From positions 364,946 through 428,945 of the forward strand of contig CANLEE010000001.1 of the NCBI GenBank assembly GCA_947489585.1: a DNA stretch of 64,000 bases. Direction: 5' to 3'. The position numbers and the translations under genes were made by a program. The stretch is from an uncultured Psychroserpens sp. GTDB taxonomy: Bacteria; Bacteroidota; Bacteroidia; Flavobacteriales; Flavobacteriaceae. This document shows, piece by piece, positions 43,896 through 55,352 of the stretch. Below the pieces are notes generated by a model. That model worked only from the letters and a program-made list of their open reading frames with translations. It did not search any database and had not been told where the DNA came from. How positions within the stretch are numbered: position 1 is the stretch's first letter; every line of letters starts with the position of its first letter.

Positions 43896-45158
43896 CTAGA
43901 AGTACTGTCCAATTCCGAAAACCAATCCCTGTGTAGCATCTGAAGTTACTCCAAACCCGTAATCAATTCTAAAAATAGCGTTGAAGATTTTTTTATGAAT
44001 AAATCGCAGGCCTACACCTGGATATACACGTATATTTTGAGACTCGCTAAAATCGCCAAAATCACCTCCAGGATTTCGCCAACTTCCGGCATCAACAAAA
44101 GCATTACCTTGTAGGGAAAACCACCCTTTTTCATAAAGTGTGTGACGGTATTCTGTATTCAATACGATGGCAGCTGTCCCGCGATCAATTGTATTACCTA
44201 CACCTCTAATATTTAAATTATTATCTACTGAAAAAGGCGCAAAAGGTGTTTCGTCATTTGAAGCGACACCTAATCGCAATCGACTTGCCCAATTGCCTTT
44301 ATTTCCGAAGCGATGAAAATATTGAAAATCATTCCAGCCAATTAAAAATGCTGGCAATTGTGCTTCATTTCTTGAGGTCACATACTGAAAGTTAAAAATA
44401 CTTCGAAACCCTTCTACATACTGATAATCGTAGTCGAGATTATTGTATTCATAAATCAATTTATATAACAATTTATGCACACGTAATGCTTGCGGCACAT
44501 CAGGATTGACAGCTCCAGATTTATATTCATAATCTTCAGTAAAATAATTGAGTCCAACTTCAATACGATTGGTAAAATTAAGTTGGTATAAGCCTAAAAT
44601 TTCAAAAGACTCATTATTATATTTGTAATCTGCTGTAGTATTATCAAAAAACACAGGCTCTTGAGTTGTTAAATTTTGATAGTTAAGTGCTAATCCAAAT
44701 TGTCTTGAAAACAAGTATGGTGCTCTAAAATTTAAGGCGTAAGAATCATAAATATCCTTTTGGTAAAAACCTCCAAAGGTCATGTTTTGCCCGAAAAGAT
44801 TAAATTCATACAAGCCTAAACGATAGGCAAATTCATCATCATTAGTGGTATATACATTTGCCGATGGGATAATCGTAAAATTCTCTTCAATATTATAAAA
44901 CACATTATAGCTATTGTCGTCTCCCGAAGGAAACACTTGATAATATGCATGTGCAATAGAAGGTAAACGTTTTAGGAGTCTAATATCTTCCTCAATTACT
45001 GTAGAGTCGAGTACTACACCAGGTTTAATATTGGATATTTTTTTTACAAATGATGATTTTAGCTTCTTATTTCCTTGAACTTTTAAATCAGCGACTATGA
45101 CATCTTGCCCATAAGAAAAACTTGCAAATAAAAGTATAAAAGTAATTACCGTTTTCAT
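43896..45158 (-). CDS. Outer-membrane protein with one POTRA domain (Omp85-like)
   Basis: Signal peptide, VQGNKKLK POTRA start, LNIRG, GVGLRF, FRIDYGFG, C-terminal GQYF. Confidence 0.75.
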   Translation of the reverse strand: MKTVITFILLFASFSYGQDVIVADLKVQGNKKLKSSFVKKISNIKPGVVLDSTVIEEDIRLLKRLPSIAHAYYQVFPSGDDNSYNVFYNIEENFTIIPSANVYTTNDDEFAYRLGLYEFNLFGQNMTFGGFYQKDIYDSYALNFRAPYLFSRQFGLALNYQNLTTQEPVFFDNTTADYKYNNESFEILGLYQLNFTNRIEVGLNYFTEDYEYKSGAVNPDVPQALRVHKLLYKLIYEYNNLDYDYQYVEGFRSIFNFQYVTSRNEAQLPAFLIGWNDFQYFHRFGNKGNWASRLRLGVASNDETPFAPFSVDNNLNIRGVGNTIDRGTAAIVLNTEYRHTLYEKGWFSLQGNAFVDAGSWRNPGGDFGDFSESQNIRVYPGVGLRFIHKKIFNAIFRIDYGFGVTSDATQGLVFGIGQYF

Positions 45159-45221
45159 GTGATGGTTATTAGAGTCTTTTGTCGGTTACATCACATATCC
45201 TTACGTTATAATGGGAATATT

Positions 45222-52489: not shown

Positions 52490-53976
52490 TCCTTCAAACA
52501 ATCATAATAGTCATATATACGATTGCTATCCTACTCATCTTTATGTATGCGTTAGCACAACTTAACCTGCTATACAATTACTTGTCTTCAAAGAAAACAA
52601 ATAAAGATTGTGAAACCTTTGATTTGACAAATCCAGACGAAGTTCCTTTGGTAACAATACAACTTCCTGTGTTTAACGAAATGTACGTTATGGAGCGCTT
52701 GTTAGATAATATTGCGCTTCTTGATTACCCGAAAGACAAATTAGAAATTCAAGTCTTAGATGACTCAACTGATGAAACTGTTGCAACAACTTTAGCTCAA
52801 ATAGAAAAACTTCAAGCTACAGGCCTTGATATCAAACATATTACTAGAACAGACAGAAGTGGATTTAAAGCAGGAGCACTTAAAGAAGGTTTGAAAATTG
52901 CTAAAGGCGAATTCATTGCCATTTTTGATGCCGATTTCCTTCCTAAGCCAAACTGGTTAAAACATACCATTCTTTATTTTAAAGATGCTGAAATTGGAGT
53001 TGTACAGACACGTTGGGGGCACATCAATAGAAATTATTCCATCTTGACCAAAATTCAAGCCTTTGCTTTAGATGCACATTTTACTTTAGAACAAGTAGGA
53101 CGAAATAGTAAAGGCCATTTTATCAATTTTAATGGTACTGCTGGTATATGGCGTAAAGCGTGCATTATTGACGCAGGAAATTGGGAAGGTGACACATTAA
53201 CCGAAGATTTAGATTTAAGTTATAGAGCACAACTAAAAAACTGGAAATTCAAATACTTAGAAGATGTTGAAACTCCTGCCGAATTACCAGTAGTGATAAG
53301 TGCTGCACGTTCTCAACAATTTCGTTGGAATAAAGGAGGCGCTGAAAATTTTAGAAAAATGCTTTGGCGCGTTGTTAAATCAAATAATATTTCTACCAAA
53401 ACGAAAATTCATGGGTTGTTGCATTTACTCAACAGTACCATGTTTTTAAACATCTTTATTGTTGCTGTATTGAGTATCCCTATGTTGTATATCAAAAATG
53501 AATATGCACATTTACGATTTTACTTTTACTTTATGAGTTTCTTCGTAATAAGTACAGTTATTTTCTTCGTTTGTTACTGGTTTATGTACAAACAAATTTA
53601 TGGCAGTGGATTTAAAAAATTTTTCGGCTATGTCGGTATGTTTTTTACATTCTTTTCAATAGCTATGGGTTTCTCATTACATAATTCTATTGCAGTTCTA
53701 GAAGGCCATGTTGGTAAACGCAGTGAATTTGTGCGTACACCAAAATTCAATATTAGTACCTTAAGAGATTCATGGAAAGGCAACAAATATCTTCGAAAAA
53801 AGTTATCACCTCATGTTATCATTGAAGGTATATTAATGCTTTATTTTGGTTTTGGATTGTACAGCGCTTTCATTGTTGGAGATCAAGGTGGTGACTTTGG
53901 ATTATTCCCATTTCATTTAATGCTATTCTTAGGGTTTGGCTATGTGTTTTTTAAATCTCTCAGTTCAAAAGTATAA
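52486..53976 (+). CDS. Processive GT2, cellulose-synthase-like (CslA/CslC-type motifs)
   Basis: QLPVFNE, GFKAGAL, IFDADF, VQTRW, FNGTAG, TEDLDL, QQFRW; several C-terminal TM helices. Confidence 0.88.
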   Translation: MILQTIIIVIYTIAILLIFMYALAQLNLLYNYLSSKKTNKDCETFDLTNPDEVPLVTIQLPVFNEMYVMERLLDNIALLDYPKDKLEIQVLDDSTDETVATTLAQIEKLQATGLDIKHITRTDRSGFKAGALKEGLKIAKGEFIAIFDADFLPKPNWLKHTILYFKDAEIGVVQTRWGHINRNYSILTKIQAFALDAHFTLEQVGRNSKGHFINFNGTAGIWRKACIIDAGNWEGDTLTEDLDLSYRAQLKNWKFKYLEDVETPAELPVVISAARSQQFRWNKGGAENFRKMLWRVVKSNNISTKTKIHGLLHLLNSTMFLNIFIVAVLSIPMLYIKNEYAHLRFYFYFMSFFVISTVIFFVCYWFMYKQIYGSGFKKFFGYVGMFFTFFSIAMGFSLHNSIAVLEGHVGKRSEFVRTPKFNISTLRDSWKGNKYLRKKLSPHVIIEGILMLYFGFGLYSAFIVGDQGGDFGLFPFHLMLFLGFGYVFFKSLSSKV

Positions 53977-55352
53977 TGCAGCTCTGGAAACTTTATAAAG
54001 TTCCTATATTGCTTACATTAGTTAGCTTTTTTCTCTATTGGTTTTTTGCTTATAATTTAATTAGAACAGATTACACAAAGCTTATTGTACTTTATTGTGC
54101 ACTTTGGTTAGTCTTTATTTTATTTCTAAAGTATGTCAAGAACAATATAAAACTCTTAACATATATTGCATTCTTGTTTAGAGCCGTTTTCATTTTAGCA
54201 ATTCCAAATTTATCACAAGACTTTTATCGTTTTATTTGGGATGGACGAATGCTTTTAGAAGGTCTCAATCCTTATCTATATACTCCTGAATCATTCATTC
54301 AAGCTAGAGGAGAAATGCCTGTAGCTCAAGCAAAAGAACTATATGCAGGAATGGGCCAACTTAATGGCAGTCATTTCACCAATTACCCCCCAATTAATCA
54401 ACTTTGTTTTATAATTGCTGGTTTATTTTCTGGTCATAACATTTTAGGTTCTGCTATTGTATTTCGACTTCTTATTATTGCTGCCGATTTCGGAACATTT
54501 TTCTTCGGAAAACGGTTATTGGAACGATTGAATATTCCTGTCAAAAATATATTCTGGTATATTCTCAACCCTTTTATTATCATTGAACTTACTGGAAACC
54601 TTCATTTCGAAGGTGTTATGATATTCTTCCTTGTTTGGAGTATGTATCTCTTGCATTCTGGAAAATGGAAATGGGCTGCTATAATTTTTGCGCTTTCTAT
54701 TTCAGTAAAATTAATACCTCTTCTATTTTTACCATTGTTATTTCAGTATTTTAAAAAGAAATCTTCTCATACTGTCAATGTTAAGACATTGATTTCTTTT
54801 TACGCTATTGTTGGAATCACAACCGCGCTTTTATTTGCACCTTTCTTTTCTTCTGAATTTGTAAACAACTATGCGCAAACTGTGGGATTATGGTTTCAAA
54901 ATTTTGAATTTAATGCCAGTATTTATTATATAACTCGTGAAATTGGTTATTGGTTTACAGGTTATAATGAAATTAAAATCATAGGTAAAATATTACCTGT
55001 TCTAGTGTTTTTGTTTGTAATAGGATTGGCATTTTCTCGAAGAACATTAGATACCAAAGCACTTATTATCAATATGCTTTTAGCATTTACAATCTACTTG
55101 TTTTTGAGCACAACTGTTCATCCATGGTATGTGGCAACACTTTTATTTTTAAGCATATTTACCAATTATAAATTTCCATTGGTTTGGAGTTTTGTGATCA
55201 TAATGAGTTATTTAGCTTACATCAATATTAATAAGATGGATAAGTCTGAAAACTTATGGATAATAGCTATAGAATATAGTGTTGTGTATTCCGTATTTAT
55301 TTGGGAAGTTTTTATAAAAAAAGCCAACTCAAAAGAGTTGGCTTCATCATAA
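53976..55352 (+). CDS. GT-C fold membrane glycosyltransferase (GT87/mannosyltransferase-like)
   Basis: LSQDFYRFIWDG, TNYPP, LNPFIIIELTGNLHFE, SVKLIP, FEFNAS, VHPWY. Confidence 0.82.
   Translation: MQLWKLYKVPILLTLVSFFLYWFFAYNLIRTDYTKLIVLYCALWLVFILFLKYVKNNIKLLTYIAFLFRAVFILAIPNLSQDFYRFIWDGRMLLEGLNPYLYTPESFIQARGEMPVAQAKELYAGMGQLNGSHFTNYPPINQLCFIIAGLFSGHNILGSAIVFRLLIIAADFGTFFFGKRLLERLNIPVKNIFWYILNPFIIIELTGNLHFEGVMIFFLVWSMYLLHSGKWKWAAIIFALSISVKLIPLLFLPLLFQYFKKKSSHTVNVKTLISFYAIVGITTALLFAPFFSSEFVNNYAQTVGLWFQNFEFNASIYYITREIGYWFTGYNEIKIIGKILPVLVFLFVIGLAFSRRTLDTKALIINMLLAFTIYLFLSTTVHPWYVATLLFLSIFTNYKFPLVWSFVIIMSYLAYININKMDKSENLWIIAIEYSVVYSVFIWEVFIKKANSKELASS
55321..55344 (-). terminator. Terminator for the 55518-55832 gene, inside the GT-C 3' end
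   Basis: AAGCCAACTC-AAAA-GAGTTGGCTT hairpin preceded by an A-run (U-tract on the minus strand). Confidence 0.65.

Follow-up and report, generated by a model that had tools for sequence, protein, structure and literature searches.

What might be made by two divergent gene sets of a marine flavobacterium, an uncultured Psychroserpens species, that encode putative glycosyltransferases together with a glycoside hydrolase, redox proteins and outer-membrane proteins? The initial annotation of the window (the whole 64,000-nucleotide stretch of DNA analysed) proposed a machine for the synthesis and secretion of a beta-mannan or glucomannan. Our analyses indicate that the gene set is real, widely conserved and so far uncharacterised, with a core composed of a candidate CslA-like synthase and a GH113 hydrolase.

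Composition and organization of the locus

An ORF check retrieved all ten genes where the initial annotation had placed them, and the four sequence motifs that it had highlighted all lie within the 496-aa GT2 (Table 1). The redox genes and a gene for a DUF547 protein, on which it did not comment, are in the same interval. The plus-strand genes of the cluster overlap or are spaced by 3 nt; the start of the small GT2 gene overlaps the MORN gene and its stop overlaps the CslA-like GT2 gene. The small GT2, CslA-like GT2 and GT-C genes are translationally coupled, and they are preceded by the flavoprotein and polyferredoxin genes, with the GH113 gene in divergent orientation.

Table 1. Genes of the cluster and of the adjacent block (40560..43853), which usually accompanies it
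Feature	Position	Strand	Basis
FA_hydroxylase	40560-41393	+	adjacent block
DUF547 lipoprotein	41435-42334	+	adjacent block
TIGR04283 GT2	42327-43115	+	adjacent block; TIGR04283, 224.5 bits (cut-off 182)
Metallophosphoesterase	43116-43853	-	adjacent block
Omp85-like protein with one POTRA	43896..45158	-	POTRA and BamA model match
GH113 lipoprotein	45222..46217	-	PF22612
Small outer-membrane beta-barrel, 289 aa	46263..47132	-	AF2 model
Secreted DUF547 protein	47165..47872	-	PF04784, E = 1.2e-25
FAD/NAD(P)H oxidoreductase, ferredoxin-reductase type	48077..49381	+	PF07992, E = 6.5e-52
NapH/CcoG-like membrane polyferredoxin	49384..50973	+	Fer4 families; NapH TIGR02163, 4.3e-12
Secreted MORN-repeat protein	50973..51800	+	PF07661, E = 8.3e-14
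Small soluble GT2, 230 aa	51797..52489	+	PF00535, E = 3.1e-20
CslA/CslC-clade GT2, 496 aa, candidate processive beta-glycan synthase	52486..53976	+	motifs and CSLA3/CSLC8 identity
GT-C fold, GT87/DUF2029-like	53976..55352	+	PF09594

Glycosyltransferases and GH113 lipoprotein

The CslA-like GT2 harbours the motifs DDSTD92, GFKAGAL126, IFDADF146, FNGTAG215, TED239, QQFRW277 and FVRTPK415, with one N-terminal TM helix and four to five C-terminal hydrophobic helices. The proposed kinship with plant CslA/CslC proteins is borne out by its identity with Arabidopsis CSLA3 (36% over 320 aa) and CSLC8 (40% over 254 aa) and by the alignment of its gating loop, SEFVRTPK, with NEWVVTEK and YEWIVTKK of these two proteins, BcsA being much more remote (E = 4.5e-18). 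By sequence, it possesses the full set of catalytic and gating-loop features that mark membrane-embedded beta-glycan synthases. Because QxxRW-type GT2 and GT21 enzymes include non-processive lipid glycosyltransferases, these motifs do not prove that a polymer is made. The protein is encoded in single copy in 146 of 301 Bacteroidota genomes, with 80-94% identity between Flavobacteriaceae genera. In most other Bacteroidota classes, its gene is found without the other genes, next to an lptE-like gene, and is unusually conserved.

The small GT2 is devoid of TM helices and harbours a DGD86 motif. Its best NCBIfam match is AglJ (2.7e-34, below the cut-off of that family), followed by Dol-P hexose transferase (3e-17) and PpgS (2.9e-16), and its best match in a PDB sequence search is GpgS (7e-10). 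It is a candidate polyprenol-phosphate sugar synthase with weak similarity to proven ones, and it is kept in 78 of 80 related loci. The GT-C protein matches PF09594 (GT87) with 31.3 bits for a cut-off of 25, and the MptA and MptB models weakly. It has approximately 11 TM segments; Asp82 and Asp89 are located in its first loop, and no sequence relative was found in the PDB. The pairing of the small GT2 with the GT-C, already suspected at first, holds well, since together with the CslA-like GT2 they form the most conserved adjacency between families, found in five further families in shuffled order.

The GH113 lipoprotein (PF22612, 144.8 bits for a cut-off of 27; lipoprotein Cys15) is present in 67 of 73 related loci. 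It is matched by AaManA (4cd6) at E = 1.8e-25, and residues E151 and E231 of the latter align with E152 and E245, indicating that both predicted catalytic glutamates are intact.

Co-occurrence across genomes and redox pair

Among the 301 Bacteroidota genomes, GH113 (41/41), GT-C (65/65) and the polyferredoxin (50/50) are found exclusively in genomes with the CslA-like GT2, even where the genes are unlinked. This nesting holds across 15-20 families, with family-level hypergeometric p values of ~3e-4 to 4e-3, and the confinement of GH113 agrees with the hydrolase-synthase partnership initially envisaged. In some genomes, such as G036, G128 and G300, the genes for GH113 and the CslA-like GT2 are megabases apart, yet both are present. 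One genome (G187) is the only GT2-positive member of the 11 sampled in its genus and has all parts plus ArsS inside 29 kb; similarly, another (G083) is the single member with the block in an otherwise negative group. Within GT2-positive genomes, pairwise associations between GH113, GT-C, polyferredoxin and ArsS go in the right direction, yet none reaches significance once phylogeny is controlled for (median p 0.125 to 1); these tests are underpowered. On the CslA-like GT2 tree, the accessory genes are concentrated in two or three clades.

The co-inheritance of the polyferredoxin makes the NAD(P)H flavoprotein/polyferredoxin pair a core part of the system, which the initial annotation had missed. 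The redox-active Cys of CoA-disulfide reductases is absent from the flavoprotein (mean identity 81% over 73 related loci), which has FFSRTALMY at its N-terminus and no Cys before residue 143. The polyferredoxin harbours at least 8 TM helices, the motifs C264xxxC268xC270 and C423xxxC427P and two CxxCxxCxxxC motifs, and its C-terminal 130 residues retain 67-77% identity even in other classes.

The accessory genes are also linked to the ArsS/ArsM arsenosugar gene set, another association missed at first. The polyferredoxin was found in 39 of 53 genomes with both GT2 and ArsS, in 11 of 93 with GT2 without ArsS and in none of the 155 GT2-negative genomes. ArsS is enriched ~9-fold (odds ratio about 9) in polyferredoxin-positive genomes, 11 of these 50 being devoid of it. 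In one locus of another family (L115), the whole set is gathered in a 13-kb cluster with TIGR04283, TIGR04282, ArsM and ArsS; there, the TIGR04283 gene directly follows the GT-C gene in the same operon, and a PlsC-type acyltransferase is also encoded. TIGR04283 is not nested in the GT2-positive set. As the accessory genes occur only with the GT2 and mostly with ArsS, the putative decorating sugar is probably tied to the neighbouring 5'-deoxyadenosyl-sugar pathway of the ArsS/ArsM type.

An optional outer-membrane module

The Omp85-like protein matches POTRA (E = 3e-6, 28.3 bits for a cut-off of 21.3) and, over residues 16-388, the BamA model TIGR03303 (E = 3.7e-12, far below the cut-off); a sequence search yielded no PDB match. 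The 289-aa protein matches no Pfam or NCBIfam family. Its AF2 model (pLDDT 83) is a beta-barrel; a fold comparison with the PDB ranked the COG4313 channel 4rl8 (TM 0.66/0.71, E = 6e-10) and FapF highest, with BcsC in 47th position. It thus models as a barrel resembling the 12-strand COG4313/FapF barrels, not the BcsC, AlgE or PgaA polysaccharide porins. The MORN protein has a signal-peptide-like N-terminus. In the secreted DUF547 protein, C143-x4-C148-P149 is invariant, and a fold search with its AF2 model (pLDDT 91) found no match in the PDB (best E 1.2).

In the 73 orthologous clusters, the Omp85-like, barrel, DUF547 and MORN genes are all present in 29 cases and all absent in 31, the remaining 13 being mixed. 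Independent contrasts within this module are in the same direction in 7-9 cases and in the opposite direction in none (MORN-barrel 9.4/0; MORN-DUF547 8.8/0). The co-variation of the plus-strand MORN gene with the minus-strand barrel and DUF547 genes, with ~9 contrasts, bears out the view that the two divergent operons form one system. The Omp85-like gene, present in 40 of 71 loci, is more loosely attached. The Omp85-like and barrel genes are missing in ~45% of the orthologous clusters and in distant lineages, where the sole exception is a partial copy of the module in L112. These four genes therefore represent an optional outer-membrane add-on rather than an obligatory polysaccharide pore. The pore drawn initially by analogy with BcsA/Z/C is not supported by these observations. 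Domain and family searches detected no PilZ, BcsB or TPR partner in the locus, and Pfam and NCBIfam profiles no Wza, AlgE or PgaA analogue. Since the module is optional and the barrel is not of the polysaccharide porin type, the term 'secretion machine' is unsupported.

Proposed function and alternatives

The predicted activities tentatively point to a conserved, uncharacterised envelope-glycan module in which the CslA-like GT2 polymerises, the GT-C decorates and GH113 trims, a plausible reading of which we are far from certain. The CslA-like GT2 would use a cytoplasmic NDP-sugar to polymerise a beta-linked chain, most likely of beta-1,4 Man and/or Glc, and would thread this chain through the inner membrane. 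A second sugar, put on polyprenol phosphate by the small GT2, would be moved to the chain by the GT-C on the periplasmic side, and the periplasm-facing GH113 might trim or release the chain. The same inherited set also includes the redox pair and the DUF547 proteins, and the decorating sugar is probably tied to the ArsS/ArsM-type pathway. The search for sugar-supply genes identified a ManC-like gene but no canonical GalU.

That the GT operon, redox pair, GH113 and outer-membrane genes are adjacent merely by shared descent within the Flavobacteriaceae is already disfavoured and seems highly improbable, even though the 80 related loci are mostly from one family and the controlled pairwise tests have little power. 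Three unlinked gene families are wholly nested in the GT2-positive set, adjacency is shuffled yet kept in other families, the block appears in isolated members of groups that otherwise lack it, and start and stop codons overlap. Somewhat less improbable, albeit still doubtful, is the full initial proposal of an exopolysaccharide secretion machine with the Omp85-like protein and/or the barrel as the conduit for beta-mannan. The outer-membrane genes do share the divergent operon with GH113 and co-vary with the MORN gene inside the synthase operon; the patchy distribution of the module, the type of barrel and the lack of a TPR, Wza, AlgE or PgaA analogue in the locus nevertheless argue against it, and to our knowledge Omp85 proteins handle polypeptides, not glycans.

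A more serious contender, although we deem it unlikely, is a glycolipid or lipoglycan route; the initial annotation had itself raised a glycolipid product as a caveat, which still holds. In this route, a non-processive or barely processive CslA-like GT2, similar to cyanobacterial MgdA or glucosylceramide synthase, would make a hexosyl-lipid; once flipped, the latter would be extended by the GT-C from a polyprenol-P donor in the manner of mycobacterial PIM to LM/LAM, with GH113 turning over the headgroup. In favour of this route, the GT2 is single-copy, highly conserved and broadly distributed, and where it stands alone in other classes, beside a gene for an lptE-like lipoprotein, its unusual conservation would also suit a housekeeping membrane lipid. 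No outer-membrane exporter is obligatory, an FA_hydroxylase gene lies upstream in the window, and the L115 locus encodes the acyltransferase. A weak Pfam signal for GT21 (ceramide glucosyltransferase) goes in the same direction, with E = 0.001 for the present protein and values as low as 2.6e-14 for homologues; the GT21 score is under the cut-off. Against this route, the co-inherited GH113 requires a beta-linked disaccharide or oligosaccharide at the least, and a GT-C using beta-linked polyprenol-P donors would generate alpha linkages that GH113 should not cleave. Fusions of GT2 homologues to large FG-GAP or PQQ beta-propellers also fit poorly with this route. Finally, the 1+4/5 helices and CslA-type gating loop of the CslA-like GT2 contrast with the 2+3 helices reported for MgdA (PMC3916417).

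Comparison with known systems

The envelope-glycan module that we favour has partial counterparts elsewhere. With the plant CSLA and CSLC Golgi synthases of beta-1,4-mannan/glucomannan and beta-1,4-glucan (GT2), the candidate synthase shares 36-40% catalytic-domain identity, the D/DxD/TED/QxxRW set, the G[FY]KAG[AN]L, IFDADF and FNGTAG blocks and the E[FW]xxTxK gating loop, and it resembles them in size and in number of helices. However, it is predicted to reside in a bacterial inner membrane, the small GT2, GT-C, redox pair and GH113 have no plant counterpart, and its sugar specificity may differ. BcsA/BcsB/BcsZ/BcsC similarly combine a membrane GT2 synthase with a periplasmic glycoside hydrolase, BcsA being the nearest solved structure, but PilZ, BcsB and the TPR/16-strand porin are lacking here, GH113 replaces GH8 and the outer-membrane genes are optional.

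A small GT2 beside a GT87-like GT-C is reminiscent of systems in which a polyprenol-phosphate-sugar and a GT-C serve periplasmic glycosylation, namely GtrB/GtrA/GtrC, ArnC/ArnT, mycobacterial Ppm1/PimE-Mpt and the lipoarabinomannan MTX cap. The neighbourhood here also encodes enzymes acting on sugars derived from 5'-deoxyadenosyl, a parallel to the methylthioxylose cap pathway reportedly described by Angala et al. in 2017. In contrast with these systems, no GtrA-like flippase gene is found in the locus, the scores of the small GT2, which has no TM helices, fall below family cut-offs, and a CslA-type glycan would serve as the acceptor. The NCBIfam 'arsenosugar biosynthesis' set (ArsS TIGR04167, ArsM NF038099, TIGR04169, TIGR04282 and TIGR04283) adjoins the cluster in the window and is fused with it in L115, although ArsS and TIGR04283 are also frequent where the CslA-like GT2 is absent. 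Lastly, the CslA-GlxA-CslZ glucan system of Streptomyces likewise unites, in one operon, a glycoside hydrolase and a redox enzyme with a cellulose-synthase-like GT2 (PMC11022532), but its GT2 subfamily and hydrolase family are different, and its redox enzyme is a secreted copper radical oxidase, as opposed to a cytoplasmic flavoprotein with a membrane polyferredoxin here.

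Organization of the gene cluster

The interval consists of two tightly packed gene strings in divergent orientation, the features of which are listed in the table. In the plus string, each of the six genes overlaps its neighbour or lies 3 nt from it. Scans for sigma-70 promoters and terminators returned 58 matches versus 61 expected, i.e. chance level, and they are uninformative on operon structure in a Bacteroidota genome. Downstream of the GT-C gene and convergent to it is a gene encoding 104 aa; the C-terminus of this protein is strongly acidic, and it matches no family. Of 80 related loci, 61 have kept it, with ~83% identity. 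A hairpin with an 11-bp stem is found within the 3' end of the GT-C gene, between these two convergent genes.

Features of the cluster and related loci (window coordinates unless a contig, genome or locus is named)
Feature	Position	Strand	Remarks
FA_hydroxylase	40560-41393	+	OlsE-like
DUF547 paralogue	41435-42334		lipoprotein
Metallophosphoesterase			next after the minus-string genes
Omp85-like protein	43896-45158	-	420 aa; single POTRA domain, weak barrel match of BamA type
GH113 lipoprotein		-	
Barrel protein	46263-47132	-	289 aa; no family match
DUF547 protein	47165-47872	-	235 aa; secreted
Flavoprotein	48077-49381	+	FAD/NAD(P)H; ferredoxin-reductase type
Polyferredoxin	49384-50973	+	polytopic; NapH/CcoG-like
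MORN-repeat protein	50973-51800	+	secreted
Small GT2		+	230 aa; soluble
CslA-like GT2	52486-53976	+	496 aa; membrane protein
GT-C		+	GT87-like
Hairpin	55320-55345		
104-aa protein	55518-55832	-	
ManC-like gene, same genome	C9:161033-162097		
Best GalU match, same genome	C3:264363-265049		
Co-localized block in genome G187	G187:C1:408-437 kb		
PlsC-type acyltransferase, locus L115	L115:15179-16117	-	

The membrane GT2 resembles plant CslA and CslC

The 496-aa GT2 harbours the full D/DxD/TED/QxxRW catalytic set (DDSTD92, DAD148, TED239 and QQFRW277), and all the motifs quoted for it in the initial annotation are indeed present. In its catalytic domain it is closer to CslA/CslC than to the other synthase GT2s compared. 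It matches Arabidopsis CSLA3 with 214 bits (36% over 320 residues) and CSLC8 with 197 bits (40% over 254 residues), both sequences being taken from the supplement of PMC3091534, against 112 bits for the PgaC model. BcsA is the nearest solved structure, yet it scores only 68 bits (E 4.5e-18). The SEFVRTPK415 segment of the 496-aa GT2 aligns with the plant gating loop (NEWVVTEK/YEWIVTKK, consensus E[FW]xxTxK) between the C-terminal hydrophobic helices. Given these identities, the aligned gating loop and the low BcsA score, we consider the likeness to CslA/CslC to be real and specific at the sequence level.

Several GT2 relatives (P0154, P0180, P0231, P0123 and P0190; 40-53% identity) are fusion proteins, with large FG-GAP or PQQ-like beta-propellers at their C-termini or CarboxypepD_reg or LRR domains at their N-termini. 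The names of distant homologues were uninformative, as was the gene context of a fused 1402-aa homologue.

Synteny and basal role of the GT2

The core of the cluster, found in 66-73 of 73 full-length Flavobacteriaceae loci, comprises the GH113 gene followed divergently by the genes for the flavoprotein, the polyferredoxin, the small GT2, the CslA-like GT2 and the GT-C. Between Psychroserpens, Winogradskyella, Gelidibacter, Algibacter and other genera, the GT2 sequences share 80-94% identity. Many marine Flavobacteriaceae, themselves major degraders of polysaccharides, have the cluster as a core feature. In families further removed, the small GT2, CslA-like GT2 and GT-C genes are still adjacent in a shuffled order, and in three of these families the DUF547, flavoprotein and polyferredoxin genes also remain with them.

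In other Bacteroidota classes the GT2 is solitary, with an lptE-like lipoprotein gene, a sigma-54-type regulator gene and miaB upstream, and GH113 is absent from its vicinity. In a number of loci (L117, L118, L122, L123, L125, L129 and L130), the string reads miaB, SPOR-TPR, sigma-54 regulator, lptE and GT2, with the GT2 immediately after the lptE-like gene. From this neighbourhood, the basal role of the GT2 may be related to the outer membrane or LPS. Its solitary state in those classes implies that the GT2 serves a basal function by itself and that the remaining parts are add-ons.

Distribution and co-inheritance

All distribution counts come from a single fixed sample of 301 Bacteroidota genomes. 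The CslA-like GT2 occurs in single copy in 146 of them, in 97 of 144 genera and 37 of 50 families. Every genome with a homologue of GH113 (41/41), GT-C (65/65, 41 of them strong matches) or polyferredoxin (50/50) is GT2-positive. In a conservative count by family, this nesting has p ~3e-4 for GH113 and polyferredoxin and 4e-3 for GT-C, and it is kept even with the genes megabases apart, as in genomes G036, G128, G300, G207 and G215. The GT2 is present in only one of the 11 sampled genomes of one genus (G187) and in a single genome of one family (G083), and in each of these two genomes the genes for GT2, GT-C, polyferredoxin, TIGR04283 and ArsS lie inside 20-30 kb. The G187 block also holds GH113, which was not found in G083. 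These blocks suggest transfer as a 20-30 kb island.

Within the GT2-positive set, Fisher tests gave tiny p-values that overstate the case and are descriptive only. In a GT2 tree of 144 usable sequences, the accessory genes fall mainly in two or three clades. Independent contrasts among GH113, GT-C, polyferredoxin and ArsS went in the expected direction, for instance polyferredoxin versus ArsS (4.1 same, 0.1 opposite), but none was significant (median p 0.125 to 1). Since these contrasts did not uphold the naive Fisher associations, co-inheritance is argued here from the nesting, from the joint retention of unlinked genes and from block transfer.

Putative partner enzymes

The GH113 lipoprotein matches PF22612 with 144.8 bits (cut-off 27) and AaManA with E 1.8e-25, and the acid/base and nucleophile glutamates of the latter, E151 and E231, align with its E152 (GTEL) and E245 (TEYG). 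Its Cys15 is preceded by a hydrophobic leader. In Bacteroidota, lipoprotein export signals are acidic residues following the Cys; those following Cys15 are not acidic, and the enzyme therefore probably faces the periplasm.

The best match of the small GT2 is AglJ (118.9 bits, under the 325 cut-off); it also matches PpgS (2.9e-16), and GpgS is its best PDB match. The GT-C scores 31.3 bits with PF09594 (cut-off 25) and has ~11 hydrophobic segments; the acidic residues D82 and D89 follow the third helix and lie in the first extracytoplasmic loop. A PDB sequence search with it gave no match. No ORF for a GtrA-like flippase was found at 43-56 kb of the window.

Regarding sugar donors, the genome, that of a Psychroserpens-like member of the Flavobacteriaceae, harbours a ManC-like gene. 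Canonical GalU (TIGR01099) was not detected in it, the best match reaching 51 bits, and UDP-glucose may be supplied by another enzyme. From the presence of the former and the non-detection of the latter, we lean slightly toward mannose as the chain sugar.

An optional outer-membrane module

The genes for the Omp85-like protein, the barrel, DUF547 and the MORN protein form an optional module: among 73 loci, all four are present in 29, none in 31 and a mixture in 13. They occupy three distinct insertion points across the two operons, and each switches state 13-14 times on a 71-locus tree. Independent contrasts were one-way for barrel and MORN (9.4 same, 0 opposite), barrel and DUF547 (8.7, 0) and DUF547 and MORN (8.8, 0), all with median p 0.004, and for Omp85 and MORN (8.2, 0; median p 0.008), which shows a functional connection between the two divergent operons. 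The pattern of presence and absence also shows that the core can dispense with the outer-membrane proteins.

The model of the 289-aa barrel (pLDDT 83) is nearest to the Pseudomonas putida COG4313 channel and the FapF peptide transporter, with BcsC at rank 47. With the module being optional as well, the BcsC-like pore of the initial annotation is not supported. The Omp85-like protein has a POTRA domain (28.3, cut-off 21.3), and the sole match of its barrel part is the BamA model (E 3.7e-12, well under cut-off); it matched neither PF01103 nor any PDB sequence.

Redox proteins and a link with arsenosugar genes

CoA-disulfide reductases have a redox Cys that the flavoprotein lacks; judging from its sequence, the flavoprotein looks like a ferredoxin reductase. 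The polyferredoxin harbours CxxxCxC and CxxxCP motifs and two 4Fe-4S ferredoxin motifs. Even in other Bacteroidota classes, its C-terminal ~130 residues, with CxxxCP and the 4Fe-4S motifs, retain 67-77% identity; its middle part varies, and the match breaks into two segments in many genomes. The secreted and lipoprotein DUF547 paralogues have in common an invariant C-x4-C-P motif and His, Arg and Glu residues. The confident AlphaFold2 model of DUF547 (pLDDT 91) resembles no fold deposited in the PDB (best E 1.2), so that the family apparently adopts a novel predicted fold; a thiol-redox or arsenic(III)-binding site is possible.

ArsS (TIGR04167), which adenosylates dimethylarsenite to 5'-deoxy-5'-dimethylarsinoyl-adenosine (PMC13598754), is found in 110 of the 301 genomes, independently of the GT2 (odds ratio 0.98). 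Of the genomes with both GT2 and ArsS, 39 of 53 have the polyferredoxin, compared with 11 of 93 with GT2 but no ArsS and 0 of 155 GT2-negative ones. The polyferredoxin adjoins ArsS in one family without GT-C. In locus L115, that of G083, the whole set forms a single 13-kb cluster, in the order DUF547, flavoprotein, polyferredoxin, CslA-like GT2, small GT2, GT-C, TIGR04283 and SDR, facing acyltransferase, TIGR04282, ArsM, ArsS and TIGR04169. TIGR04283 was rejected as an obligatory partner: it exceeds its cut-off in 152 of 301 genomes, many of them GT2-negative, and in only 29 of the 50 polyferredoxin-positive ones. As TIGR04283 shows no nesting within the GT2-positive genomes, the coupling between the cluster and arsenosugar genes is partial.

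The acyltransferase of L115 is of the PlsC type and is encoded inside the ArsM/ArsS operon. In the window, an FA_hydroxylase gene adjoins those for DUF547 and TIGR04283. These two enzymes may point to a branch for lipids, perhaps arsenolipids.

Proposed functions and comparison with known systems

In the model that we tentatively favour, at somewhat less than an even chance, the CslA-like GT2 would make and translocate a beta-linked chain, the small GT2 and the GT-C would attach a second sugar in the periplasm from a polyprenol-phosphate donor, GH113 would trim the chain, and the redox pair and DUF547 would serve an ArsS-linked branch. A rather unlikely alternative is that the GT2 builds a glycolipid or lipoglycan anchor. 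QxxRW-type enzymes include single-transfer lipid glycosyltransferases, and the motif is therefore no proof of processivity; the lptE-like neighbourhood would also fit such a product. On the other side, the GT21 family HMM (PF13506) gives 19 bits on the GT2, under its 21.7 cut-off, and the predicted topology of one N-terminal and four to five C-terminal helices differs from the published 2+3 pattern of cyanobacterial MgdA (PMC3916417). The complete beta-mannan or glucomannan synthesis and secretion machine of the initial annotation, likened to BcsA/Z/C, is quite improbable in view of the dispensable outer-membrane genes. That the genes are merely unrelated neighbours would accord with the non-significant contrasts among accessory genes, and is hardly credible beside their nesting in the GT2-positive set.

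A bolder reading, which we regard as unlikely, is that the cluster and the adjacent ArsS/ArsM genes form one pathway putting a SAM-derived 5-deoxy-pentose covalently on a CslA-type envelope beta-glycan or glycolipid. In genomes with ArsS, this sugar would be dimethylarsinoyl-ribose; elsewhere it might be a methylthio- or 5-deoxy-pentose. It would be transferred via a polyprenol-phosphate carrier and the GT-C, with the redox state of the arsenical managed by the NAD(P)H-polyferredoxin pair together with the Cys-x4-Cys DUF547 proteins. If true, this would be the first bacterial envelope polymer to carry arsenic, and it would fill in the late steps still missing from arsenosugar metabolism. The cluster offers testable candidates for late steps in bacterial arsenosugar handling, and the ties that it has with a dedicated NAD(P)H/iron-sulfur membrane pair and with arsenosugar genes suggest a chemistry of the envelope unseen elsewhere.

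The literature searched (on DUF547 and glycosyltransferases, GH113 and flavobacterial cellulose synthase, MgdA and CslA, and flavobacterial GT2 glycolipid synthases) held nothing on this cluster. Unlike Bcs-type synthase-dependent secretion systems, it has no PilZ domain on the synthase and no BcsB partner, neither family being detected among the ten cluster proteins, and it is devoid of an outer-membrane TPR protein with a 16-18-strand polysaccharide porin. Its intact, co-inherited GH113 is a candidate for the periplasmic same-linkage hydrolase of such systems. The parts are of known types and their arrangement is undescribed, combining a synthase and its hydrolase with a lipid-carrier/GT-C decoration step. 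To our knowledge, the evolutionary origin of the plant hemicellulose synthases CslA and CslC has yet to be settled. Heterologous expression, in E. coli or Pichia, has been achieved for plant CslA (bioRxiv 10.1101/2021.04.20.440611). If the GT2 product is a beta-mannan or glucomannan, the enzyme would be a bacterial counterpart of these synthases, with a matching GH113 built in and amenable to study in a simple organism.
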